Assembly (NCBI GenBank): GCA_048938445.1
Contig: JBHLME010000005.1
Coordinates: 654 to 64,653, forward strand
DNA: 64,000 nucleotides
Source: Promethearchaeota archaeon
GTDB lineage: Archaea > Asgardarchaeota > Lokiarchaeia > Sigyniarchaeales > SOKP01
Direction: 5' to 3'
The position numbers and the translations under genes were made by a program. Below, piece after piece: positions 2,360 to 22,081 of this stretch (the first letter of the stretch is position 1; each line of letters opens with the position of its first letter). The notes under the pieces are model-generated. The model made no database searches. It was not told the DNA's origin and saw nothing but the letters and a program-made list of their open reading frames with translations.

Positions 2360-3781
2360 CTTATTAGTTTTTTTTTTCCATATTTTTCTATCAACATGAG
2401 ATTGGATTAATCGTGTTCTAAGTTCATACAAAGACTTACTAATGCTTACTTTGTATTTTTTAGGATCCAGAAGTCTTTTTGAATCTTCGGAGAGGTGATT
2501 AATGTCAATTTCCATCGTTTGCCTTGCTTCACGCCAGTTTCCTAACTTTCCTTGTATTTTTCCTTTATCAACTTTCATTTTTAACAATGTTTCTATCCTA
2601 GATGGACCGGAAAGCTTGTAATACCTCATTGGATTTAGCGGATCATAAACAATGTCTTCCTCAAGAGTATCTTTTTCTACAAGTTCCATTACATCCCCAG
2701 TCATTAAATCATCATCATCATAAAGACGATATACTTGCTTTTTAGAAGGAATGGTAATTTTTTCAACTTCATTTGCAACTTTAATCTTTGGTTGTTTATC
2801 CAGGGATACAAGTTTATACACGCCCCCAAGCGCAGGATCATCATAACAAGTAGCTAATTTTGTTCCTATACCCCAAATATCCACTGATCCACCATGTGTC
2901 TTTATCTCTCTGATGAGGTGTTCATCAATATCACTAGAAACAACAATCTTAGTATCTTTGAGACCTGCTTCGTCAAGTAATTTCCTTACTTCTTTACTAA
3001 AATATGTAAGATCACCTGAATCGATTCTCACACCAAATAATTGTTTTCCCTTAGCTTCAAGTTCTTTTCCTACTATGATTGCATTTTTACACCCTTCAAC
3101 AATGTCATATGTATCAATTAATAAGATACAAGCATCAGGATATACATTCGCGTATGCTCTGAATGATTCTAACTCGGAATCAAATGCCATCACCCAAGAA
3201 TGGGCTTGAGTACCTTGAATGTCCATGCCATATATTTTACCGGCTAAAACGTTTGAGGTCCCTGAGCATCCACCCACCAAGGAAGCTTCACTTGCAGCCA
3301 ATCCACCATTTGGACCTTGAGCTCTTCGCAATCCAAATTCTAATATTGGTTGTTTTTCAGAGGCTAACCACATTCTATTAGCTTTGGTAGCACATAACGT
3401 GGAAAAATTGAAACTATTTAATAAAAAAGTTTCTATTAATTGGCATTGTATAAGTGGACCTTCAACTTCCATTATAGGCTCATGTGGAAAAATGATTCTA
3501 CCATCATCCATTGCACGAATGGTTAATTCGCATTTCCATTTCGCTAAATACTCTAAAAATTCATCTGAAAATATTTTTTGTTGTTTGAGAAAGAGAATAT
3601 CTTCTTCAGAAAAATGCATCTCACATATATTTTTTATAGCTTTGTTTATCCCATAACAAATTGCGTATGCACCTTTAAATGGAGCAGTCCTGAAAAACAA
3701 GTCAAATACTGCTTGTTTATGGGCAATTCCTCTTGCAAGATATCCATTAGCCATTGTAAGTTGATAATAATCCGTTAGCAA
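2339..3781 (-). CDS. pncB: nicotinate phosphoribosyltransferase
   Basis: 480 aa. Has N-terminal LTDYYQLTMANGY, GTQAHSW and VRIDSGD blocks typical of NAPRTase. TTG start in track. Confidence 0.85.
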   Translation of the reverse strand: MLTDYYQLTMANGYLARGIAHKQAVFDLFFRTAPFKGAYAICYGINKAIKNICEMHFSEEDILFLKQQKIFSDEFLEYLAKWKCELTIRAMDDGRIIFPHEPIMEVEGPLIQCQLIETFLLNSFNFSTLCATKANRMWLASEKQPILEFGLRRAQGPNGGLAASEASLVGGCSGTSNVLAGKIYGMDIQGTQAHSWVMAFDSELESFRAYANVYPDACILLIDTYDIVEGCKNAIIVGKELEAKGKQLFGVRIDSGDLTYFSKEVRKLLDEAGLKDTKIVVSSDIDEHLIREIKTHGGSVDIWGIGTKLATCYDDPALGGVYKLVSLDKQPKIKVANEVEKITIPSKKQVYRLYDDDDLMTGDVMELVEKDTLEEDIVYDPLNPMRYYKLSGPSRIETLLKMKVDKGKIQGKLGNWREARQTMEIDINHLSEDSKRLLDPKKYKVSISKSLYELRTRLIQSHVDRKIWKKKTNKLSFFSQ

Positions 3782-12081: not shown

Positions 12082-12540
12082 ATGTCTGATAAAGAAATTT
12101 GGACGATAAAACTGGATTGGCTTAATATCGTAAATCTTTTAGGATTAGATAAGATTGAACAAATCTCAGAAATAAAAAAAGAAAAAGCAATAAAAAAGAT
12201 TAGTAAATCATTTGATACTGATGTTCTATTAGAAAAAGATCCTGATGAATTGGATAAAATTGTAGCCGATGAATTGAGAGAAATAATGAAAAAAGAATTA
12301 ACTCAAAAGGCTAAAGACCAAGAAAGAAGGGAGAGAGAATTTCAGAGTAATTTTATTCCATTTAAGAATGGTGGAATAATAAATATAGATCCGAGAGACC
12401 TTAAAGACCTCGATATTGATATTGATGGAGATCCTTATGATCTTCTAAAGAAGTTAGCTAAAAAGTTTTTTAGAGGAGATAACGATTCAGACGACGATAA
12501 AGATAAAACTAAAGAAGATAACACGGGATATTACATCTAA
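12082..12540 (+). CDS. hypothetical acidic protein
   Basis: 152 aa, charged, with an Asp-rich C-terminus (DNDSDDDKDK). Confidence 0.4.
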   Translation: MSDKEIWTIKLDWLNIVNLLGLDKIEQISEIKKEKAIKKISKSFDTDVLLEKDPDELDKIVADELREIMKKELTQKAKDQERREREFQSNFIPFKNGGIINIDPRDLKDLDIDIDGDPYDLLKKLAKKFFRGDNDSDDDKDKTKEDNTGYYI

Positions 12541-12609: not shown

Positions 12610-13248
12610 TTATGAGTTCTCTTTTTCTTTAACTTTTTTCGAGATTTCTTCTTTTAGTTTTAAAGCTTCAGCGTGATCTGGTTCTATTTCTAATGCTTTC
12701 TCACAACAAATTAGTGCTCTATCAGGCATTTTTAAGTTTATATATGCTATTGTTTTAGAATACCATGCATGAGAGATATTCGGATCTTTATCTAAAGCAC
12801 TATTAAAACATAAAATTGCTTCCTTATATTTTTTTAAATTAATGAGAGAATTACCTTTATTTAATAAAACTAATTCAGGTACCTGGGGATTTAATTCTAA
12901 AGCCTTATCAAAACAGTTAATAGCTTCTTTATATTTTCCAAGCAGACTCAGCACAAAACCTTTATTTTCCCAAGCTTCACAATTATCTGGATGAAACGAT
13001 AAAAACATGCTATAGTAAGTGATAGCATTCTCATAGTCCCCATTCTTTTTATATTCATTAGCCTTTTCAAGATCACTTTGAATTTCCTTCTTCTCTTCAA
13101 CGAGAGTAATATCATTTTCTTTTGAATCTTTCTCTGTTTCTTTTACACTTCCGGATTGATCACCTTTTTTTCTCAAGGGTTTACCACAATATTTACAATA
13201 AAAAAATTCGTTTCCAACTCTTCCTCCGCAATTTGTGCAAAAATTCAT
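12610..13248 (-). CDS. zinc-ribbon plus TPR repeat protein
   Basis: N-terminal CTNCGG..x..CKYCGKPL zinc ribbon, then TPR units (AWENKGFVLSLLGKYKEAINCFDKALELNP, AWYSKTIAYINLKMPDRALICCEKALEIEP). Confidence 0.7.
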   Translation of the reverse strand: MNFCTNCGGRVGNEFFYCKYCGKPLRKKGDQSGSVKETEKDSKENDITLVEEKKEIQSDLEKANEYKKNGDYENAITYYSMFLSFHPDNCEAWENKGFVLSLLGKYKEAINCFDKALELNPQVPELVLLNKGNSLINLKKYKEAILCFNSALDKDPNISHAWYSKTIAYINLKMPDRALICCEKALEIEPDHAEALKLKEEISKKVKEKENS

Positions 13249-13432: not shown

Positions 13433-14368
13433 TCACATCTCTTGAGATAAGATTTCGTTCAAAAGAGAAATTAAAATATTGAACTCTTCAGGATCGAATG
13501 AAGATTCTGCTTTACTAAATAATAAATAATAAGGGGATGCTCCTTTTGTCAGTTTAAAACGCTTGAAAATAAAAAATTTACCCATTCTTTCTATTTGAGT
13601 GTAATTATCTTCTTGGTCTTTATGTTCCGTTCTTTCGAAACCATCATTTAATCGCAAAAAGTAAGGTGAAAGGGAATTTAATATTTTTTTAATAGAATCA
13701 TTTTCATAATATGAGCCTATGATAAGCGAGTTATTATCCAAGAGTTCAATTCCTTCAATATTGCATTTTTGAGCAAATTCTTTAATTGAATTATCAATTA
13801 CTTTACCCTTAGGATATAAATTGATTAAAAGTTTAGACATGGCATTTACAATTGATGGTAAATTAAAAATTGTAGTTTTATAGAATGAAAAATTCTTATA
13901 ATTTTTAAAACTTTCAATTTTCTTTTTTAAAAACTGATATGTATCTTCCATTTTAGTATCAGTGTCAACCATTAATTCAGGATCAAATTTATGAAAAAAA
14001 ACATGGATGGAAGGGGTGATTCCAAGTTCAGTGAATTTATCTACTACATCATATAAATACGAACAAGAATCCACGATACGTTCACGGTCCTGTACATCAA
14101 CGACATATATCATTATATCCGTTCCCCTAAAGATCATCTGAGCTTTTTCTAAATAGGTTTTACGAAATCGTTCTTGCCCTCCAAGATCCCATTCAGAAAT
14201 AGTCATGCCCAAAAATTCAAAATTCCGTCTCTCAGCATTTCTAGTGGGTTTAATAGTTGCAATTTTTGAAATTTCTCTCAATAAAGAAAAGATTATGGAT
14301 GTTTTTCCGGCATTATCTAGACCAGTAAAAATAATCTTTCGAATATTGGAACCATCTTCTGACGTCAT
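13433..14368 (-). CDS. Rag/Gtr-like small GTPase with C-terminal roadblock-like domain
   Basis: 311 aa. G1 GLDNAGKTS, G3 WDLGGQERF, G4 HKFD. TTIFNLPSIVNAMSKLLINL and IKEFAQKCNIEGIELLDNNSLIIGSYY parallel human RagA [20 protein letters not shown] and [27 protein letters not shown] (from memory). The C-terminal ~130 aa has a roadblock-like strand/helix pattern. Confidence 0.8.
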   Translation of the reverse strand: MTSEDGSNIRKIIFTGLDNAGKTSIIFSLLREISKIATIKPTRNAERRNFEFLGMTISEWDLGGQERFRKTYLEKAQMIFRGTDIMIYVVDVQDRERIVDSCSYLYDVVDKFTELGITPSIHVFFHKFDPELMVDTDTKMEDTYQFLKKKIESFKNYKNFSFYKTTIFNLPSIVNAMSKLLINLYPKGKVIDNSIKEFAQKCNIEGIELLDNNSLIIGSYYENDSIKKILNSLSPYFLRLNDGFERTEHKDQEDNYTQIERMGKFFIFKRFKLTKGASPYYLLFSKAESSFDPEEFNILISLLNEILSQEM

Positions 14369-14481
14369 GATGTATGGTTTATTTTTTTTGCTTTTTAATA
14401 TAACAAGAATTTTCCTTATAAATAATTATTTCAAAAATTGAATTTAGTTTGGTTGAATAAAGTGTATTAAAATCTAGTTTC

Positions 14482-14814
14482 CTACAAGCTAATAAATAAT
14501 AAATTATCTTTAGATTCTAAAAAAATAGATTTCCTTGAATTTAACAAAGTTTTATACTGTTTTTTGTTAAGTAGAGAAAGATTTTCTTTATTAACATTAG
14601 AACAGTGGATATGGACTAATTTCTTTTCAATTAAATTTACTAATATTTCATAAAAATCATTATTTTTATTTTTTGAGTAGTTTTTCATGTTTGAATTCAA
14701 GAATGAAATTATTAACCTCCTATCGAATCGTTTGTTAAGTTCTCTTAAACTTGAGTCCTCTTGAGGATGATTAATAATTAAATTTCCTTCCATGATAAAG
14801 ATAATTCTACCCAT
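14482..14814 (-). CDS. small hypothetical protein (possible longin/roadblock-size partner)
   Basis: 110 aa, co-oriented and just upstream of the GTPase gene. Starts with a beta-hairpin-like GRIIFIMEGNLIINH. No firm motif. Confidence 0.35.
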   Translation of the reverse strand: MGRIIFIMEGNLIINHPQEDSSLRELNKRFDRRLIISFLNSNMKNYSKNKNNDFYEILVNLIEKKLVHIHCSNVNKENLSLLNKKQYKTLLNSRKSIFLESKDNLLFISL

Positions 14815-14966
14815 ATTTATTTAATATTTTAATATGTGTGTAATACTTTGCTTTTATGATCAGGTTTCGTCTTATATATTCTTGATATTGTTTCAATCAA
14901 AGATATTTAAGGATCTATGAAAAGATATCAGTTAAATAAAATTTCCTTACTATTTTAAATGATATT

Positions 14967-15683
14967 TTATAGACTAAAAAGCTCTAAATAAATTTGCCTT
15001 TCATATTTCTTTAATGCTTTTAATTTACTATTCCATTTAATTAGATGATACCATTCATAAAGTATGTATATTATTAATATTGCTTGTGAACCAATTGTTA
15101 AGATTATTATTACATCTAATAAAAAAGGTCGTTGGGGGGGTAATCCTTGGAAATAGCTTGTATAATACCATACGATATAAAATAAACAAAATAAATTCAG
15201 AACTATAAAAAAATTTCTGATAATTCTCATATTCTTAATAATTCCGTAGAAAAAATCTGTTAAAGTTAATTGGTTTTTAAGATTTTCGATTTCTTTATCA
15301 TAATTTTTTATGTTTAGCTCTGATAATTGTTGTATCTTATAATTCTTTAACTTATTTTTCCAGCGGAGCAAAAATAGATAATTTATAAGGGCAAATATCC
15401 CAATTATCAACAATAAAATTATTGGTAACAAGACTTCAAAAAGGGGTGGAGATGGACGGGGTTTAGGAGGTGCTGAATAACTCTCTAGATTAAGAATCAA
15501 TTGAAAAACAAGACTAATAAACTGAGCAGAAACGATAAAAATTGGGACTACCGCACTAATAAGGAGAAACATTTTTTCATGATTTATATAATTAAGTCCC
15601 ACATTCTCTAATCTGTTGAATATCGATTTATAAGCTGAATTTTCTTCCTTCATTTTGTTATTATTCTCAACCATTAGTATCAC
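14967..15683 (-). CDS. 4-TM membrane protein with internal duplication
   Basis: 238 aa. Two TM hairpins, each followed by a basic amphipathic segment (LFLLRWKNKLKNYKIQQL and LYEWYHLIKWNSKLKALKKYERQI). GTG start at 15683 or ATG at 15674, 3-12 nt after the upstream stop. Confidence 0.5.
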   Translation of the reverse strand: MILMVENNNKMKEENSAYKSIFNRLENVGLNYINHEKMFLLISAVVPIFIVSAQFISLVFQLILNLESYSAPPKPRPSPPLFEVLLPIILLLIIGIFALINYLFLLRWKNKLKNYKIQQLSELNIKNYDKEIENLKNQLTLTDFFYGIIKNMRIIRNFFIVLNLFCLFYIVWYYTSYFQGLPPQRPFLLDVIIILTIGSQAILIIYILYEWYHLIKWNSKLKALKKYERQIYLELFSL

Positions 15684-15686
15684 CTT

Positions 15687-16481
15687 TTAATTAAATGCCT
15701 CCATATCTGTGTTAATCTGAACGAACCATTGATAACGTTCTCTTCCTTTTTCAGTGGTATTATAAATGATCCTCATTCTTTGACCCCAAGATTCTTCATT
15801 TGATGTAATATAACCAGCATTTTCTAATTTATTAAAATATTTTTCTGCTGTAGTTGATTTCAAACTACAATAATCAATTAAATGTGATTTAATTATTCCT
15901 TTCCTAGGATTAGCCTTATTTCTTTCTGCACGTAATATATTCTCTAATATTCTTTGAATTATTATGTTCATTGTGCGATAATTAGTTTTTGGAGCCTCTT
16001 CTTTTAATGTAAATTTTTTAATTTCTTGTGCAAAAATCTCGTGAATTTCCTTTAACTTATTATAATCCTGTTCCCTTTCACCATGTCTTTTCTTTAATTG
16101 AATCATTTGCTTAGATGCATCTTTAAATATTGGTTCCAAATCTTTAATATGACGATGATAAATATAATCATCTGATTCTCGAAAAACCAATGAAAAAGAG
16201 CCTACACCAGAACCACCTCGTCGATATTCATCATCCCATTCAAATAATAAAGAAATTATTTTTTTTCTTCCTGATGAAAATGGAAGAAATGCCAAAGATC
16301 TGGTTGAGGTTGAGGCCTCATCGAATAAAAAATCAATAGTTTTTTGAGCGATTTGATTTGCAAATTTAGTTTTAATTTCTGGGTATGATGCTATTGGTAT
16401 AGGACCTATATGATCATCAAATTCACAAATAATTAAACTAAATTCTAATTCATCAACCATTGGAATAGCTAATGATTTCAT
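15687..16481 (-). CDS. longin-like (folliculin/Lst7-type) domain fused to a C-terminal winged helix-turn-helix
   Basis: 264 aa. N-terminal EFSLIICEFDDHIGPIPIASYP ... SLAFLPFSSGRKKIISLLFEWDDEYRRGGSGVGSFSLVF has a longin-like strand/helix order and recalls folliculin HFCELHGP ... ARG..R.YS. C-terminal SLKSTTAEKYFNKLENAGYITS...RIIYNTTEKGRERY is a wHTH. Confidence 0.5.
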   Translation of the reverse strand: MKSLAIPMVDELEFSLIICEFDDHIGPIPIASYPEIKTKFANQIAQKTIDFLFDEASTSTRSLAFLPFSSGRKKIISLLFEWDDEYRRGGSGVGSFSLVFRESDDYIYHRHIKDLEPIFKDASKQMIQLKKRHGEREQDYNKLKEIHEIFAQEIKKFTLKEEAPKTNYRTMNIIIQRILENILRAERNKANPRKGIIKSHLIDYCSLKSTTAEKYFNKLENAGYITSNEESWGQRMRIIYNTTEKGRERYQWFVQINTDMEAFN

Positions 16482-16657
16482 TATGAATAGGATTGATTTA
16501 TTTAATGTTTTGGGATTTAAAAATTTAGACTCAATAATACCTTGAAAATAATTATATTGTTTTATAAATGGTTCTGTACCATTGGTTCATAAGAATTTAA
16601 ATATACTTTTTTTGATTATTTTTATAAAATTTTTTAAAAAAACATTGAAGTATTTAC

Positions 16658-17584
16658 ATGAAAATTAAAGAAATATTCAAATTTAATAAAAAACATGCTT
16701 TTATATATCTGGGATTCATTCTTACAGTAATCTTATTTTTGTATATATTTATTGGTAATAGACAGGCCTTTCCTTCGATATATACCGAGTCCTTCATAAA
16801 TATTATTCCTGGTCCATTAATCACGGATATTCTTATTTTATATTTTCTTCCTATTGTAATTGTTTTTATCATCCTCAAGTTTGCACCATCTATTAGTAGT
16901 GTTTACTTGAAAGTACATAAAACTGTATATCTTGGAAGAAAAACATTAAATTATGGAATAGTTGAATTAAAACAGGAAAGGAAAATATGGACTTTACTAA
17001 GAAGAGCTTTTCTTATCGGATTTCTTGCTTTTTCATTCAGCTCAAATCTTGTTTTTGCACAATTGGGAGGTTTATTTCGAGCACACATGATACCAATGAA
17101 ACCTGGAGATGAGGCATTACTAGGAGCTGAAGCGATGTTTCTTGGAACATTTTTGTTTACTTCCTTATCATTTCTTATTGTCCTGCCAATTTGGATCATC
17201 GAAGACACTGGTATAATGGTATATCGTACATTTCCCGAAGAATTAAGGACACCTTCAGTAAAAGGAGCATATCGATTATTCGAACAATTAATAGAAGGAT
17301 ATACAGGTATAAATACTGTTATTACCCTTGTAGTGATTATCAGTAACGTCATACCTGCAGTTCTAGGGACACACGGTATGATTGTACCAATAATATTAAT
17401 AATTCTTCCGCTACTTGTTATTGGTCTATTTGCTTTTGCACTGATAATTTATGAAAATTCAGTTCATTCGACAATACAAAAGATGCATGATAAATTATCT
17501 AAAAAAGGATACCAGTTCATATCTATTCCAAATTTTAATGAAATTACATATCAAAAAGAAATTAAGAAGGATTTGAAGGAGTAA
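16658..17584 (+). CDS. polytopic membrane protein
   Basis: 308 aa with about 7 hydrophobic segments. Ends 6 nt before the DUF1566 gene. Confidence 0.5.
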   Translation: MKIKEIFKFNKKHAFIYLGFILTVILFLYIFIGNRQAFPSIYTESFINIIPGPLITDILILYFLPIVIVFIILKFAPSISSVYLKVHKTVYLGRKTLNYGIVELKQERKIWTLLRRAFLIGFLAFSFSSNLVFAQLGGLFRAHMIPMKPGDEALLGAEAMFLGTFLFTSLSFLIVLPIWIIEDTGIMVYRTFPEELRTPSVKGAYRLFEQLIEGYTGINTVITLVVIISNVIPAVLGTHGMIVPIILIILPLLVIGLFAFALIIYENSVHSTIQKMHDKLSKKGYQFISIPNFNEITYQKEIKKDLKE

Positions 17585-17590
17585 TCAGTC

Positions 17591-18784
17591 ATGAGAAAAA
17601 AGGTTAAAATTTCCATAATCATCGCTGTTATTGGCACAGCTGTTATAATTTCAGGAGTAATCATATTTCAATTCTTTATTTCTCCACCATATAATCCTTT
17701 AGAAAGATATGTTCTCTGTGTAAGAGGATCAACAGATTATGGAATTAATAATCTTACAGCTAATCCTGATTTCACAGTTACAGATCATGCGACTGGTCTC
17801 ATGTGGATGATGAATGACAGTGGCACGACCATGAACTGGAGTGAGGCACTGAGTTATGCTGAGAATCTCAATTTTGCGGGATATAATGACTGGAGATTAC
17901 CAAACGCAAAGGAACTTCAAAGCATAGTTAATTACACCCGTGCTCCAGATGCAATTAACGCATCCTTACGTGGACCGGCCATTGATACGAATTTTTTTAA
18001 CATCACTGAAGAAGAATCTTGGTTTTGGACAAGTACAACTCATATTGAGAATGGATATGGTGTTTATGTCTGTTTTGGTATCGCTTCAGCTTACAATACC
18101 TCTGCTGGAGATTTCTCAATGAATGCTCACGGTGCTGGTGCTCAACGAAGTGATCCAAAAAGTGGAGATCCTGCTGATTATCCGCAAGGTCATGGACCAC
18201 AAGGTGATCAAATCCGAATATATAACTATGTGAGAGCCGTTCGCAACGATACTATTGGTTCCGTGAATTACAAGGTTGTAGACACGGGTCAAACAGGTTT
18301 TTTTGGAGAAGGCAACAATTTGATTTCTGAACCAATTGTTGGACAACCTTATTATGGACAAGATGCACATTATGATGGATTTCAATTTTCTTATCAAGAT
18401 AACGGTGATGGAACTATTAACGATTGCAATACGGGATTAATGTGGCAGAAGGCTCCTGCTTCGGAAAAATATAATTGGAATGATGTTTTATCCTATGCTG
18501 AAAATCTATTTTTTGCGGGATATTCAGATTGGCGTTTACCAACCATTAAAGAATTATACTCATTGATAAATTTTAATGGTGATATCAATACACGCACACC
18601 CTATATCAATACGGATTATTTTGATTTTGAATATCCTGATACGAGTACAGGTGCCCGGATTATCGATGCTCAATATTGGTCGTCAACGAAATATGTAGGA
18701 AAAATCATGTACGGTCAAGAAGGAGCTTTTGGAGTAAATTTTGCTGATGGACGAATTAAATGTTATCCTCTTTCACTAATTTAA
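17591..18784 (+). CDS. membrane-anchored protein with two DUF1566 (Lcl C-terminal-like) domains
   Basis: 397 aa with an N-terminal TM anchor. The signature is duplicated: WSEALSYAENLNFAGYNDWRLPNAKELQSIV and WNDVLSYAENLFFAGYSDWRLPTIKELYSLI. Confidence 0.7.
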   Translation: MRKKVKISIIIAVIGTAVIISGVIIFQFFISPPYNPLERYVLCVRGSTDYGINNLTANPDFTVTDHATGLMWMMNDSGTTMNWSEALSYAENLNFAGYNDWRLPNAKELQSIVNYTRAPDAINASLRGPAIDTNFFNITEEESWFWTSTTHIENGYGVYVCFGIASAYNTSAGDFSMNAHGAGAQRSDPKSGDPADYPQGHGPQGDQIRIYNYVRAVRNDTIGSVNYKVVDTGQTGFFGEGNNLISEPIVGQPYYGQDAHYDGFQFSYQDNGDGTINDCNTGLMWQKAPASEKYNWNDVLSYAENLFFAGYSDWRLPTIKELYSLINFNGDINTRTPYINTDYFDFEYPDTSTGARIIDAQYWSSTKYVGKIMYGQEGAFGVNFADGRIKCYPLSLI

Positions 18785-19021: not shown

Positions 19022-19112
19022 TTTTTATGTTTAAATGATTATTAATCCTAGCAAGCGGCTTGTAAAAATCGTTAAAGAACAAAATACCGCTTGCGTGAAT
19101 AAGGTTTTTAAT
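19022..19112 (+). promoter_or_regulatory. csp promoter/5' leader with 8-bp stem
   Basis: TATA-like TTTTTATGTTTAAA at 19022-19036. GCAAGCGG (19051-19058) pairs perfectly with CCGCTTGC (19087-19094) just upstream of the ATG at 19113. Confidence 0.35.
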
Positions 19113-19355
19113 ATGGTAAATGGAACTGTAAAATGGTTTAATAGCCGAAAAGGTTATGGTTTTATCGCCTCAGAAGAAGGGGCGGACGTTTTTGTTCATT
19201 ATTCTGCCATTAAAGCAGACAACGATGAATACCGTTCATTAAATGAAGGAGATAAGGTTGAATTTGAAATAACTGAAGGTCAGAAAGGCCCACAAGCTAC
19301 TGATGTTGTTGTCACGGAACATGCTCCACGACAACAGAGATCATTTCGTTATTAA
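19113..19355 (+). CDS. csp: cold-shock domain protein
   Basis: [18 protein letters not shown] (RNP1 KGYGFI) and DVFVHYSAI (RNP2). I prefer the internal ATG at 19113 to the track start at 19035, because CSD proteins begin at this motif. Confidence 0.85.
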
Positions 19356-20086: not shown

Positions 20087-21496
20087 TTATTTTTTACGTT
20101 TTCCATCAATCTTTTTGATGATGACAGCTTCGGCGTGGATCTTGCAATTCTTGAGTATTATCTTGAAGCCTCCCATACCGCCTGCTCCAGGAACTGTAAA
20201 TGTTTGAGTACCCATTGGAACCATGGCACCAGCAGCTTCATATCCTTCTTCTTCTTCCTCTTCCTCTTCACCAATAGCCATCTTATAAGCATCAGTTTCG
20301 ATGATTGGATGTTTCTTCTCCTCTAACCATGCTTGTAATGCATTGATCTCATTCACATCTTCTTCAGTAGCAATCTTATCGACTAAATCAGCTGGGAGAA
20401 ATTCCGCAACTCTATCCTTAAGTGCTTTGCCCATCCATACAACCGTTTCGATTCCACCATCATATTGTTGATATTTTGGACTGGCGATGTATTGAATACT
20501 GATACCATTGAATCCAGGCATTTGCTTACCGCCACCTGTTTGGTTTGCCATTGCACTGAAAGGAAGTCCGTTAATCGCTGGACCATCATGACTTCTATCA
20601 ATGATTCCATGTCCACCAATTTCAGGAATTAAAAAGTCAATAGCTTCAAAACATCCACAACTCGTATGTGGAAATTCCATTCCCGAATACAAATAGATTG
20701 TCTCGATTTCACCAAGCGATCTTTTCTTTATCATGTCATTAATTCCTTGGTAGTGCCCAGCAAAATTGTCATAGCATTCTCCGGGAGGAACTTCAAAGAT
20801 AGGTCCCTTTGGGTCAACCTTTGCTGCCGCACGCGCGTCAAACCAATTGATGCTGCCACAAAGTGAGGTTCTGTCAGGTGTAATGCAGCAGGCATGAGTT
20901 GGGGCAAAAGATTGACAGAGAACACATCCATAGAACATGTCTACATCCTCATCATGTAGTCCTCTCGCTCTTTCGTCTCGTGCATTATAAACTTCCATAG
21001 CCATTTTATGTGGTTTCTCAATACTTTTCTTGTCCGTATAGAAAGTTACCTGTGCTTTTTCAATGATAGGTAATTCTGCTTTAAAAAGCCTAATTAAAAT
21101 TGTTCCTAACATTTCTAAGGTATTAAAACCCTTCTCAAAAGCTTGAATGCTAATCCTCATCCAGTTTGTATATCGCTGGTTCAGATGCATTATCCCGTTA
21201 ACAAAGTTGCAGAATTCATGAATCCTCCTTTCAAAAACGGCTTCTAAATCTTCTTCTAACTGCTTTCCTGCTACTTCTACAAAAATACCAATTGGTTGAG
21301 AAGAACCTTTCTCCATGTCTTTCAGATCTGGGCCATTAATCGTTACCTTTCCATCCGTCACGTTTTGATTGACCCTTACAAGCTCAAATTTCTTTTCTAC
21401 CTTCGGACCGCCGAGTTCAACGTACATTTGATTACCTCTTATACGTTCACCCTCATAGACCGGTCCCACGTCTACAGGCATATCAGAAAAACTCAT
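20087..21496 (-). CDS. cdhC: acetyl-CoA decarbonylase/synthase complex beta subunit (acetyl-CoA synthase, A-cluster)
   Basis: 469 aa. CQSFAPTHACCITPDRTSLCG and HTSCGCFEAI are the A-cluster Cys motifs. Archaeal-type C-terminal extension with a poly-Glu run. Confidence 0.9.
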   Translation of the reverse strand: MSFSDMPVDVGPVYEGERIRGNQMYVELGGPKVEKKFELVRVNQNVTDGKVTINGPDLKDMEKGSSQPIGIFVEVAGKQLEEDLEAVFERRIHEFCNFVNGIMHLNQRYTNWMRISIQAFEKGFNTLEMLGTILIRLFKAELPIIEKAQVTFYTDKKSIEKPHKMAMEVYNARDERARGLHDEDVDMFYGCVLCQSFAPTHACCITPDRTSLCGSINWFDARAAAKVDPKGPIFEVPPGECYDNFAGHYQGINDMIKKRSLGEIETIYLYSGMEFPHTSCGCFEAIDFLIPEIGGHGIIDRSHDGPAINGLPFSAMANQTGGGKQMPGFNGISIQYIASPKYQQYDGGIETVVWMGKALKDRVAEFLPADLVDKIATEEDVNEINALQAWLEEKKHPIIETDAYKMAIGEEEEEEEEGYEAAGAMVPMGTQTFTVPGAGGMGGFKIILKNCKIHAEAVIIKKIDGKRKK

Positions 21497-21550
21497 ATTA
21501 TTAACTCACTCTTTAATTATTTCTCTTATTTTAATTTTAATAAAACAAAA

Positions 21551-22081
21551 TTATAATTTTTCGATTAATTTCTCCAAAAAATCCTTCCATTCTGCATCGC
21601 TTAGATTAGGCAAGCTAAACCTTGCATTTGGATGGGCGTATTTATCTAAATTGATGGTTTTAAGCCAATCGGTAAAATTTTTCAATTTACTTAAAGCTTG
21701 ACTTGAATAGAACACCAAATGTCCGCTAAAGATTGCCATCTTATACTGACCTTTCCCATCCAAACCTTTCCAATCTCTATCTCCTAATCGAGTTGTGATA
21801 TTTATCAAAGACTCATCATATATCTTATTTTTCGTGATTTTACCATTAACATAACCAAACGCGTGTCCTGTGGTAACGACATCACAATCAATTTTATTAG
21901 CAATCTCAATTAGGTAATCAGCAAGTTTTTTTTCACCCAACTGCCAATTTAAAGACTCTGCTCCAATGACTAAAACTTTTTTCTTAGGATCCTTTAAAAG
22001 ATTCGCCATGACCTGAGGGTCATTTACAGATATTCCCATTTCTGGTCCAGGTATGTTCGCTTTTTGATATGGTCTTGCCAT
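21551..22081 (-). CDS. cdhB: acetyl-CoA decarbonylase/synthase complex epsilon subunit
   Basis: 176 aa. DWKGLDGKGQYKMAIFSG and ARFSLPNLSDAEWKDFLEKLI parallel Methanosarcina CdhB (WPGLDGNGNYDMVI, MSFGNLSKADYYAALDELI, from memory). Lies directly upstream of cdhC. Confidence 0.8.
   Translation of the reverse strand: MARPYQKANIPGPEMGISVNDPQVMANLLKDPKKKVLVIGAESLNWQLGEKKLADYLIEIANKIDCDVVTTGHAFGYVNGKITKNKIYDESLINITTRLGDRDWKGLDGKGQYKMAIFSGHLVFYSSQALSKLKNFTDWLKTINLDKYAHPNARFSLPNLSDAEWKDFLEKLIEKL

Follow-up and report, generated by a model that had tools for sequence, protein, structure and literature searches.

A GAP-class longin fused to a predicted winged helix, its membrane-protein partner and a neighbouring RagA-like GTPase gene in an Asgard archaeon: a four-gene cluster that is not conserved

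Four minus-strand genes, one of them a RagA-like GTPase

Four genes lie on the minus strand between positions 13433 and 16481 of the window, by which we mean the whole 64,000-nucleotide stretch of Promethearchaeota archaeon DNA that was analysed, and all are present at the coordinates given in a first-pass annotation of this DNA. They encode a longin–winged-helix (wHTH) protein of 264 amino acids (15687..16481), a four-transmembrane (4-TM) protein (14967..15683; 238 amino acids from a GTG, or 235 from the ATG at 15674), a small ORF listed at 110 amino acids (14482..14814) and a RagA-like GTPase of 311 amino acids (13433..14368). The 4-TM gene starts 3–12 nt past the stop of the longin–wHTH gene, as had been noted; 152 nt separate the 4-TM gene from the small ORF, and 113 nt the small ORF from the GTPase gene. 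Judging from homologues, the start codon is probably the eighth codon, a methionine, in both the 264-residue ORF (position 16460) and the 110-residue ORF (position 14793). The first-pass annotation had assigned a Rag architecture to the GTPase, a folliculin-class longin and a winged helix to the 264-residue protein, and a repeat structure to the 4-TM protein, and all of these domain calls proved correct.

The top Pfam match of the GTPase is Gtr1_RagA (PF04670; E 5.7e-30, 104.9 bits against a cut-off of 22, residues 11–224), which covers 216 of 232 profile positions, with Arf as the runner-up at 69.3 bits, confined to the N-terminal half, and a sequence search of the PDB matches it to 8yl2 with E 8.4e-70. 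The P-loop, the DxxG motif and H126-K127-x-D129 are invariant (across 60 homologues for H126, K127 and D129), and HKxD replacing NKxD in the G4 motif is a feature of Rag/Gtr proteins. In the AlphaFold2 model (pLDDT 80) a G domain is followed by a roadblock domain, residues 188–308, with the order alpha-beta-beta-alpha-beta-beta-beta-alpha; Foldseek aligns this model over its full length, in 303–320 columns, to 8yl2 (TM 0.81–0.87) and to RagA and Gtr1 (TM about 0.73). For the G domain, phmmer ranks Arl3 (2e-13) and Gtr1/RagA (3e-13) as equals by E-value, and the Foldseek ranking of the fold favours Rag. The protein is an orthologue of the Lokiarchaeota ‘LokiRagO’ (8yl2), and its family is spread across Asgard phyla, for over 1100 homologues score E ≤ 1e-20 and bear names from several of them; on the GTPase itself, whose family has a solved structure, the analysis adds nothing to what is known. 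No second Rag-like gene was found in the 64-kb window. A gene for a TPR protein follows the GTPase gene.

The small ORF is, on comparative grounds, a genuine gene, because an orthologue of 103 amino acids and 60% identity stands in the equivalent place at locus L006, directly upstream of the GTPase orthologue there, and because identity between the two genes by codon position is 0.78/0.80/0.41. It is restricted to this lineage, being missing upstream of the more distant GTPase orthologues (L007, L008/L009 and L010/L011). Searches with its product gave nothing above threshold in Pfam, where DUF4836 reached 20.3 bits and the cut-off is 27; NCBIfam had no match, and the PDB no significant sequence match.

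The longin–winged-helix protein and its membrane partner

The first part of the 264-residue protein (about residues 8–165; 15987..16460, minus strand) is a longin domain of the GAP-longin class. In a model with a pLDDT of 89.8 it shows the longin topology beta-beta-alpha-beta-beta-beta-alpha-alpha (strands 14–22, 26–33, 64–68, 73–83 and 91–101; helices 38–55, 102–131 and 136–160), followed by a winged helix and a C-terminal helix, and Foldseek matches it first to the Loki longin 8yqg (E 3e-7) and then to NPRL2/3, Lst4, Npr2/3 and FLCN/FNIP2. A GP motif, G26-P27 (16401–16406, minus strand), lies at the start of beta2, and R88-G89 (16215–16220, minus strand) in the beta4–beta5 loop; across 24 homologues G26, R88, G89 and D105 are invariant and P27 is conserved in at least 90%. 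The longin fold and the GP motif are those of the FLCN/NPRL2/SMCR8 GAP class, which the invariant Arg-Gly also recalls, and a class of Asgard longins with the GP motif and the arginine has already been described (PMC12290439). By hhalign the beta1–GP–beta2 segment falls on NPRL2 residues 7–41, with the GP on NPRL2 G20-P21; the global alignment to NPRL2 has a probability of 4%, with no significant sequence similarity past the first hairpin, and alignment to FLCN gave no detectable sequence similarity. By sequence order, R88 would lie in the loop that holds NPRL2 R78 and FLCN R164, which makes it a candidate counterpart of their catalytic arginine.

The nearest sequence relatives of this longin are Asgard proteins of about 350 amino acids in which a longin is fused to a Ras/Rab-like GTPase, with up to 41% identity and E-values down to 7e-39. 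Among 97 representative matches to the N-terminal domain, 66 have at least 140 residues after it, and 58 of these 66 carry the G1, G3 and G4 motifs, with G4 being NKxD in 57 of the 58; on the full-length fusions scanned, the Pfam Ras profile scores E of about 1e-46 to 1e-49. One such fusion also bears a TIR domain. The longin–wHTH fusion itself was found in one other independent lineage only (L001/L005/L012).

Residues 166–264 (15687..15986 with the stop codon, minus strand) form a PadR/Sso10a/MarR-like winged helix with a C-terminal helix (helices 167–187, 198–204 and 209–221, wing 225–242, C-terminal helix 244–263 in the model), which Foldseek matches to MarR, PadR (5zi8, TMt 0.75) and Sso10a-2. 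Its Pfam scores are all below cut-off (HTH_34 22.6 bits against 27, PadR 18.5 against 27, HTH_45 18.2 against 25.5), as is that of NCBIfam Sso10a_fam (E 7.8e-6, 25.8 bits against 60), and by sequence it matches SlyA in the PDB with E 0.003. It is 50–66% identical to standalone proteins of 101–105 amino acids, whose genes (L014, L015/L016 and L017) overlap a 4-TM homologue or end 8 nt before it; at L014 the short form is genuine, since in-frame stops lie upstream.

The 4-TM protein has four transmembrane segments in a hydropathy scan, and its first half aligns to its second (E 2e-6), making it a 2x2-TM repeat; the juxtamembrane motif is W-(K/N)-x-K-L. The protein matches no Pfam or NCBIfam family. 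A homologue lies directly 3' of every wHTH homologue examined, with identities of 51–55% at L001/L005, 38% at L014, 31% at L017 (E 3e-32) and 24% at L015/L016 (E 5e-15), and by gene order it is the wHTH with which the 4-TM protein is consistently paired, whether or not a longin precedes it. The proposal that it serves as a Ragulator-type anchor was not upheld, for it is an integral 2x2-TM protein in which Pfam and NCBIfam find no LAMTOR or roadblock similarity.

In the divergent intergenic region upstream of the longin–wHTH gene, a palindromic element, GAACCAATGGTACAGAAC (16571..16588, minus strand), lies just 5' of a TTTATAAA box and is a candidate operator. It occurs once in the window against 0 copies expected by chance, a figure to be read with the element's post hoc choice and the AT-richness of the DNA. 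The element is kept upstream of the orthologous longin–wHTH genes in L005 and L001, with proteins that share only about 63% identity, and a half-site, CGAACAA, is also present ahead of the standalone wHTH genes at loci L014, L015 and L017.

Neighbourhood conservation and the reading of the region

The first-pass annotation had proposed the four genes as a candidate Rag-type signalling module and had named a neighbourhood that does not recur in related genomes as a ground for rejecting it; in related genomes the cluster is indeed not conserved, from either side, and the single-module proposal is therefore not supported. GTPase orthologues from four lineages (L006, 78% identical; L007, 63%; L008/L009, 60%; L010/L011, 56%) have no longin–wHTH or 4-TM homologue within about 2.8–6 kb upstream, and around the longin–wHTH and 4-TM pair of L005/L012 neither a GTPase gene nor the small ORF occurs for about 9 kb upstream and 4.6 kb downstream, an absence that rests on n = 1 because only that locus has enough flank. 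By blastn, positions 3224–4661 of L006 align to 14838–13432 of the window and the alignment then stops, with no match upstream of 14838, which puts a synteny breakpoint at 14839..14966, between the stop of the 4-TM gene and the small ORF and hence between the two gene pairs. In Loki, 37 Rab-like and 41 longin proteins are predicted, and GTPase genes are generally not in operons with longin or roadblock genes (PMC10933270); with dozens of small GTPases and longins in Asgard genomes (PMC10933270), chance adjacency is therefore plausible.

We consider it probable that the region holds two independent units, a longin–wHTH/4-TM operon and a RagA-like GTPase locus, that are neighbours in this lineage only, and we extend this assessment to the following model of the regulator. 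One unit would be a tightly coupled two-gene operon of the longin–wHTH regulator (15687–16481) and its 4-TM partner (14967–15683), in which a regulator that stands alone at about 100 amino acids in most lineages would have recently gained an N-terminal FLCN/NPRL2/SMCR8-class longin here and in one related lineage. A wHTH dimer may bind the conserved element GAACCAATGGTAC... beside the TATA box, over its own promoter, and so regulate its own gene, while its availability or activity could be controlled at the membrane by the 4-TM protein. The longin would act as a second input to the regulator: it would bind a small GTPase and might stimulate its GTP hydrolysis, with a Ras/Rab-like paralogue a likelier partner than the adjacent Rag-like protein. 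The other unit would comprise the small lineage-specific gene (14482–14814) and the Asgard RagA-like GTPase (13433–14368). It is conceivable that, in this lineage alone, the longin protein is functionally linked to the adjacent RagA-like GTPase.

The idea of a single Rag-type module, in which the longin–wHTH protein is the GAP or effector of the adjacent GTPase, the 4-TM protein a Ragulator-like anchor and the winged helix the transcriptional output, draws on the facts that every part shows its predicted fold and that the four genes share a strand within 3 kb. The longin is of the class, marked by the GP motif and invariant arginine, whose eukaryotic members NPRL2 and FLCN are Rag GAPs (PMC12290439), NPRL2/3 also have a longin followed by a wHTH (PMC3521125), and an NPRL2-class longin beside a RagA-like GTPase is how a GATOR1-like pair of GAP and substrate would be expected to look. 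Against this stand the unconserved cluster, with its synteny break between the pairs, the co-occurrence of the 4-TM protein with longin-less wHTH proteins where no GTPase is nearby, the fusion of the longin's relatives to NKxD Ras/Rab-like and not HKxD Rag-like GTPases, the lack of LAMTOR/roadblock similarity in the 4-TM protein, and the plausibility of chance adjacency where GTPase and longin genes rarely share operons (PMC10933270). We hold a single module to be very unlikely. A related proposal would make the protein a small-GTPase-controlled transcription factor, with the longin reading or switching off a GTPase (perhaps its RagA-like neighbour), the winged helix passing the signal to the promoter and the 4-TM protein tying the system to the membrane; this we regard as unlikely, and, if true, it would condense into one prokaryotic protein the route from GATOR1/FLCN and Rag to transcription and be a present-day instance of the NPRL2/3 architecture of longin plus wHTH.

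Sensor domains get added to PadR/MarR regulators, and longin domains form dimers. The longin here might have nothing to do with GTPases and serve the wHTH regulator only as an added module for dimerisation or scaffolding, or as a sensor of a small molecule or protein, as the rarity and recency of the fusion, the existence of the core wHTH and 4-TM pair without a longin, and the top structural match would suggest, 8yqg being a dimeric Asgard longin with the GP motif and without the RG motif. However, G26-P27 and R88-G89 are as strictly kept in the wHTH fusions as in the GTPase-fused relatives, which argues that a GTPase-facing surface is still under selection, and we find this explanation unlikely, though it deserves to be kept in mind. 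It might also be the winged helix that is misread: as a protein-interaction domain docking the longin on the 4-TM protein, it would belong to a membrane-recruited GAP/GEF platform and not to a DNA-binding regulator. The wHTH domains of NPRL2/3 are not known as DNA binders (PMC3521125), Foldseek aligns 243 columns of the protein to the GATOR1 chain 9v0j_A, and the wHTH and 4-TM proteins are strictly coupled; but the close identity of the wHTH to standalone proteins, its nearest profile and fold matches in the DNA-binding families PadR, MarR/SlyA and Sso10a, and the conserved palindromic element beside the TATA box upstream of the genes stand against a docking role, which we consider very unlikely.

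Comparison with known systems

Taken as two units, the region can be set beside several known systems. Asgard archaea possess many eukaryote-like GTPases and longin and roadblock proteins, and gene order rarely tells which regulator pairs with which (PMC10933270); the present genes show that such caution is justified, for a Rag-like GTPase, an NPRL2-class longin and a membrane protein make a very suggestive cluster and yet are a lineage-specific juxtaposition. The GTPase shares sequence and fold with LokiRagO (8yl2), at about 41% identity in the structural alignment, and resembles RagA/Gtr1 in its G domain with a roadblock C-terminal domain and in its HKxD G4 motif. The title of 8yl2, ‘homo-tetrameric RagA-like small GTPase from Asgard Lokiarchaeota’, describes a homo-oligomer, in contrast to the RagA/C-type heterodimer of eukaryotes; eukaryotic Rags heterodimerise through their roadblock domains, whereas no second Rag-like gene adjoins the GTPase here.

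NPRL2/Npr2, the catalytic subunit of GATOR1/SEACIT and a GAP for RagA/B, has, like the protein described here (Foldseek E 2.6e-4), an N-terminal longin with a GP before beta2, by sequence order an arginine in the loop of the following beta-hairpin, and then one or more winged-helix domains (PMC3521125, PMC12290439). NPRL2 differs in carrying a triad of wHTH domains, where there is a single one here, and in acting as a subunit alongside NPRL3 and DEPDC5 and not as a DNA-binding regulator; because the wHTH here has clear homologues among the small PadR/Sso10a-like proteins of archaea, the shared domain order is most likely convergent. Among the Folliculin/Lst7, FNIP/Lst4 and SMCR8/C9orf72 proteins, the fold matches Lst4 (4zy8, TMt 0.66) and FLCN/FNIP2 (8dhb, 6ulg), and the GP motif and Arg-Gly recall the FLCN ‘LARG’ (R164, its sequence checked against the PDB). 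Unlike the FLCN/FNIP/SMCR8 complexes, the protein here has no DENN domain, and a family profile search found no paired second longin gene of the same family in the 64-kb window.

The winged helix is of the kind seen in PadR-family (e.g., Rv3488), MarR/SlyA and Sso10a proteins, which have a wHTH with a C-terminal dimerisation helix and are often co-encoded with membrane proteins, as this gene is coupled to the 4-TM gene; it departs from them in its sub-cut-off scores and in having a 4-TM partner that falls outside the families described so far. Small wHTH and 4-TM protein together form a conserved two-gene system that was previously undescribed, and a literature search found no report of an N-terminal longin on a PadR/MarR/Sso10a regulator. 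The joining of a GAP-class longin to a predicted DNA-binding domain is a natural fusion of a rare kind. Should the longin have kept its ability to bind a GTPase, the protein would offer a simple handle on that partner and on whether Asgard GTPase switches feed into transcription. Its closest counterparts in this respect are the Asgard fusions of a longin to a Ras/Rab-like GTPase, which share its invariant G26, R88, G89 and D105 and carry a Ras-family G domain (NKxD) after the longin, in the place that the winged helix occupies here.

Four genes in two neighbourhoods

The first-pass annotation had proposed that four minus-strand genes form one Rag-type signalling module, and all four ORFs were found exactly where it placed them: a longin-winged-helix (longin-wHTH) gene (15687-16481, 264 aa), a gene for a four-transmembrane (4-TM) protein (14967-15683, 238 aa from a GTG start or 235 aa from an ATG at 15674), a small ORF (14482-14814, 110 aa as listed) and a RagA-like GTPase gene (13433-14368, 311 aa). 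Each of its domain assignments also held up; the single four-gene module did not, as the neighbours are kept from neither side and similarity to the closest related locus ends between the two pairs. Comparison of related loci instead argues that the four genes are two units joined only in this lineage. The longin-wHTH and 4-TM genes are 3-12 nt apart, the 4-TM gene and the small ORF 152 nt, and the small ORF and the GTPase gene 113 nt; G+C content is ~26-37% throughout the window. Homologues of the 264-aa and 110-aa ORFs begin at the position of Met8 in each (16460, MVDELEF..., and 14793, MEGNLII...), residues 1-9 of the 264-aa protein model have a pLDDT below 50, and the proteins made are probably 257 and 103 aa long. 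Gene calls for a contig identical to the window place a cold-shock-domain protein (19035-19355, plus strand) and CODH/ACS subunits (CdhC, CO_dh; 20087-22081, minus strand) within a few kb of the four genes, the latter indicating a Wood-Ljungdahl-type metabolism of the organism.

Seen from the longin-wHTH side, the fusion occurs in only one other lineage (L001/L005/L012/L013, 62-64% identity), where the 4-TM gene again lies directly downstream. On a long contig of this lineage the pair is followed by a PIN/RHH toxin-antitoxin pair, a serpin and a nitroreductase, with neither the GTPase nor the small ORF beside it, and a metagenome scan with the longin-wHTH alignment returned just the L005 and L001 sequences again (as L012 and L013). 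VapB-like, Fic, PIN and RHH toxin-antitoxin-type genes surround the pair in L005 (915-3468 and 10861-14219), which suggests a variable genomic region.

Seen from the GTPase side, a scan of genome contigs yielded one locus, and the closest orthologue (L006, 78% identity) keeps the small ORF (103 aa, 60%) and two further genes: a 212-aa protein (12610-13248, minus strand; 56%) that has four TPR repeats and, at its N-terminus, a zinc-ribbon-like CxxC...CxxC, and a 152-aa acidic protein (12082-12540, plus strand; 76%), both being part of the block on the GTPase side. The window and L006 are similar at the nucleotide level from 13432 up to 14838, a point that falls in the spacer separating the 4-TM gene from the small ORF, and there the similarity ends; upstream of its small ORF, L006 carries unrelated genes over 3.2 kb. 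Further orthologues (L007, 63%; L008/L009, 60%; L010/L011, 56%) have other neighbours, and no longin-wHTH or 4-TM homologue was found at the L006, L007, L008/L009 or L010/L011 loci. The more distant orthologues are preceded by 84-aa genes, encoding a ubiquitin-like protein in L007 (2413-2667) and acidic proteins in L008-L011 (L008 3562-3816 and 4644-4898; L010 5534-5788); these are unrelated to the small ORF. Family and structure searches with the small ORF itself gave no match. An Arf/Ras/Roc protein with multiple PAS domains (944-951 aa) lies downstream of the GTPase in L008 (7100-9955) and in L010 and L011 (7057-9891), L009 ending ahead of the full gene; in the MAGs with these acidic and Arf/Ras/Roc-PAS neighbours the GTPase is named as from Promethearchaeota or Hodarchaeota, and the Arf/Ras/Roc-PAS neighbour may say more about what this GTPase family does.

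The RagA-like GTPase

The Rag architecture claimed for the GTPase, a G domain followed by a roadblock domain, is borne out by family, motif and structural evidence alike. Its top Pfam match is Gtr1_RagA (E 5.7e-30, residues 11-224), the Arf profile scoring lower and covering the N-terminal half only. Among PDB sequences 8yl2 matches best (E 8.4e-70) and 8zla/9m28 come next (4e-27), with Arl3, Gtr1 and RagA all at about 1e-13. Homologues number >1100 at E<=1e-20, nearly all of 311-326 aa, usually named 'ADP-ribosylation factor-like protein' and drawn from Promethearchaeota, Lokiarchaeia and Hermod-, Thor-, Hod- and Heimdallarchaeota. All 60 aligned homologues retain the P-loop, DxxG and an H-K-x-D G4 motif without variation, HKxD being the Rag/Gtr version of G4. 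In the AlphaFold2 model (pLDDT 80, pTM 0.82) the G domain is followed by an alpha-beta-beta-alpha-beta-beta-beta-alpha roadblock domain, and Foldseek ranks 8yl2 first (TM 0.81-0.87; titled 'Homo tetrameric RagA-like small GTPase from Asgard Lokiarchaeota (LokiRagO)'), with RagA and Gtr1 next, aligned over their full length (TM ~0.73), above every Arf-like protein. The GTPase is thus a member of a known Asgard family with a solved structure; a literature search on 8yl2, 8yqg, 8zla, 9m28 and 'LokiRag' found no paper. Searches of the window for Rag-like paralogues, and for additional longin or wHTH paralogues, found none.

The longin-winged-helix protein and its membrane partner

When the 264-aa and 4-TM proteins were used as queries, word-index searches reached one other lineage each (for the former, apart from the query, a single relative at 62% identity), and an exhaustive profile search was needed for the two domain families. 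For the 264-aa protein this search recovered 119 cluster representatives that split cleanly into two sets, residues ~8-165 matching the N-terminal domain of ~350-aa proteins and residues ~166-264 matching ~100-aa proteins. The ~350-aa relatives are fusions of the N-domain to a Ras-family GTPase (Pfam Ras E ~1e-46 to 1e-49); among the 66 representatives that continue for 140 aa or more past the N-domain, 58 contain G1, G3 and G4 motifs, G4 reading NKxD in 57 of them. In one 525-aa homologue (P0040) the same longin domain is combined with a Ras-like G domain and with a TIR domain, an arrangement of defence-like or signalling type. The fusion of longin and wHTH is intact in independent assemblies, ruling out an assembly or frameshift artefact.

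The model of the 264-aa protein (pLDDT 89.8, 46-row alignment) has a beta-beta-alpha-beta-beta-beta-alpha-alpha N-domain, which is the longin topology, and a winged-helix C-domain with a long C-terminal helix. Foldseek matched the N-domain to a Lokiarchaeota longin domain (8yqg; E 3e-7, TMt 0.72-0.74), then to GATOR1 chains (9o5d_D, 9v0j_A, 9o5a_H; E ~3e-4), and thereafter to the Lst4 longin (4zy8), the yeast SEA complex and FLCN/FNIP2 complexes (8dhb, 6ulg); the C-domain matched MarR/SlyA, PadR (5zi8) and Sso10a-2. By sequence profile, the longin family found 8yqg only in the PDB (E 0.011), with no FLCN, NPRL2 or SMCR8.

A repeated 4-TM protein just past the longin-wHTH stop had also been predicted, and hydropathy, internal repeat and gap all agree with it: there are four hydropathy peaks, and the two halves can be aligned to one another (E 2e-6), each with a W-(K/N)-x-K-L juxtamembrane motif. 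Pfam and NCBIfam searches assigned the protein to no family. Standalone wHTH homologues (101-105 aa, 50-66% identity to the C-domain) occur in L014, L015/L016 and L017, each followed by a 4-TM homologue (38%, 24% and 31% identity, respectively; E 3e-36 to 5e-15) that starts 8 nt later or overlaps. In-frame stops upstream show the short L014 gene to be genuine, and likewise exclude the standalone protein P0006 as a truncated fusion. This pairing without a longin domain argues that the conserved unit is wHTH plus 4-TM and that the longin domain is a later N-terminal addition.

The 176-nt divergent intergenic region upstream of the pair (16482-16657) contains a candidate operator, GAACCAATGGTACAGAAC (16571-16588, minus strand; in short form GAACCAATGGTAC), with a TTTATAAA box directly 3' of it. 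The element occurs once in the window and is kept ahead of the L005 and L001 orthologues; the half-site CGAACAA also lies upstream of the three standalone wHTH genes (L014, L015, L017), against a background of ~0.47 per kb per strand. Noticed post hoc, the conserved element is a candidate autoregulatory operator. The region is common to a divergent, unannotated gene for a 308-aa multi-TM protein (16658-17584, plus strand), which is followed by a gene for a protein with two Lcl_C domains (17591-18784, plus strand; E 3.5e-52). An Lcl_C protein is also divergent from the pair in L005 (7477-8985, ~50% identity), not in L001, and is a possible regulatory target of the pair.

A possible GTPase partner and the likeness to NPRL2

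As far as fold and motif go, the claim of a folliculin-like longin joined to a wHTH is supported. In a 24-sequence N-domain alignment G26, R88, G89 and D105 are invariant and P27 nearly so; in the model, G26-P27 lies in the loop directly ahead of beta2 and R88-G89 in the beta4-beta5 loop. The GAP-type longins FLCN, NPRL2, SMCR8 and C9orf72 are set apart by a GP motif before beta2 combined with an arginine finger, a combination that they share with a class of Asgard longins (PMC12290439, 2025). Using human NPRL2 and FLCN sequences checked against PDB chains, hhalign placed beta1-GP-beta2 of the longin family on NPRL2 residues 7-41 (E 1.2e-4, probability 55%) and gave no alignment with FLCN. By sequence order, NPRL2 R78 ('KKYSRNALLF') and FLCN R164 ('DSLARGFQRW') lie in the loop that would match that of R88; the global NPRL2 alignment that illustrates this putative equivalence is of low confidence (probability 4%).

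Most likely, the longin-wHTH/4-TM pair would act as a wHTH regulator linked to the membrane, to which a longin domain facing a GTPase has been added. Because the relatives of that domain are Ras-type fusions, a GTPase of the Ras/Rab type would be a more probable partner for it than the Rag-like protein next door. Chance could plausibly have put the two units side by side: small GTPases number in the dozens in Asgard genomes and longin proteins about 40, and a GTPase gene does not, as a rule, share an operon with its regulators (PMC10933270). A lineage-specific functional link between the longin-wHTH protein and the RagA-like GTPase appears improbable to us, and would be of interest if true because eukaryotic NPRL2 is a GAP for RagA. 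Since NPRL2/3 are themselves longin plus wHTH proteins (PMC3521125), the closer eukaryotic analogue of the 264-aa protein is NPRL2 rather than folliculin.
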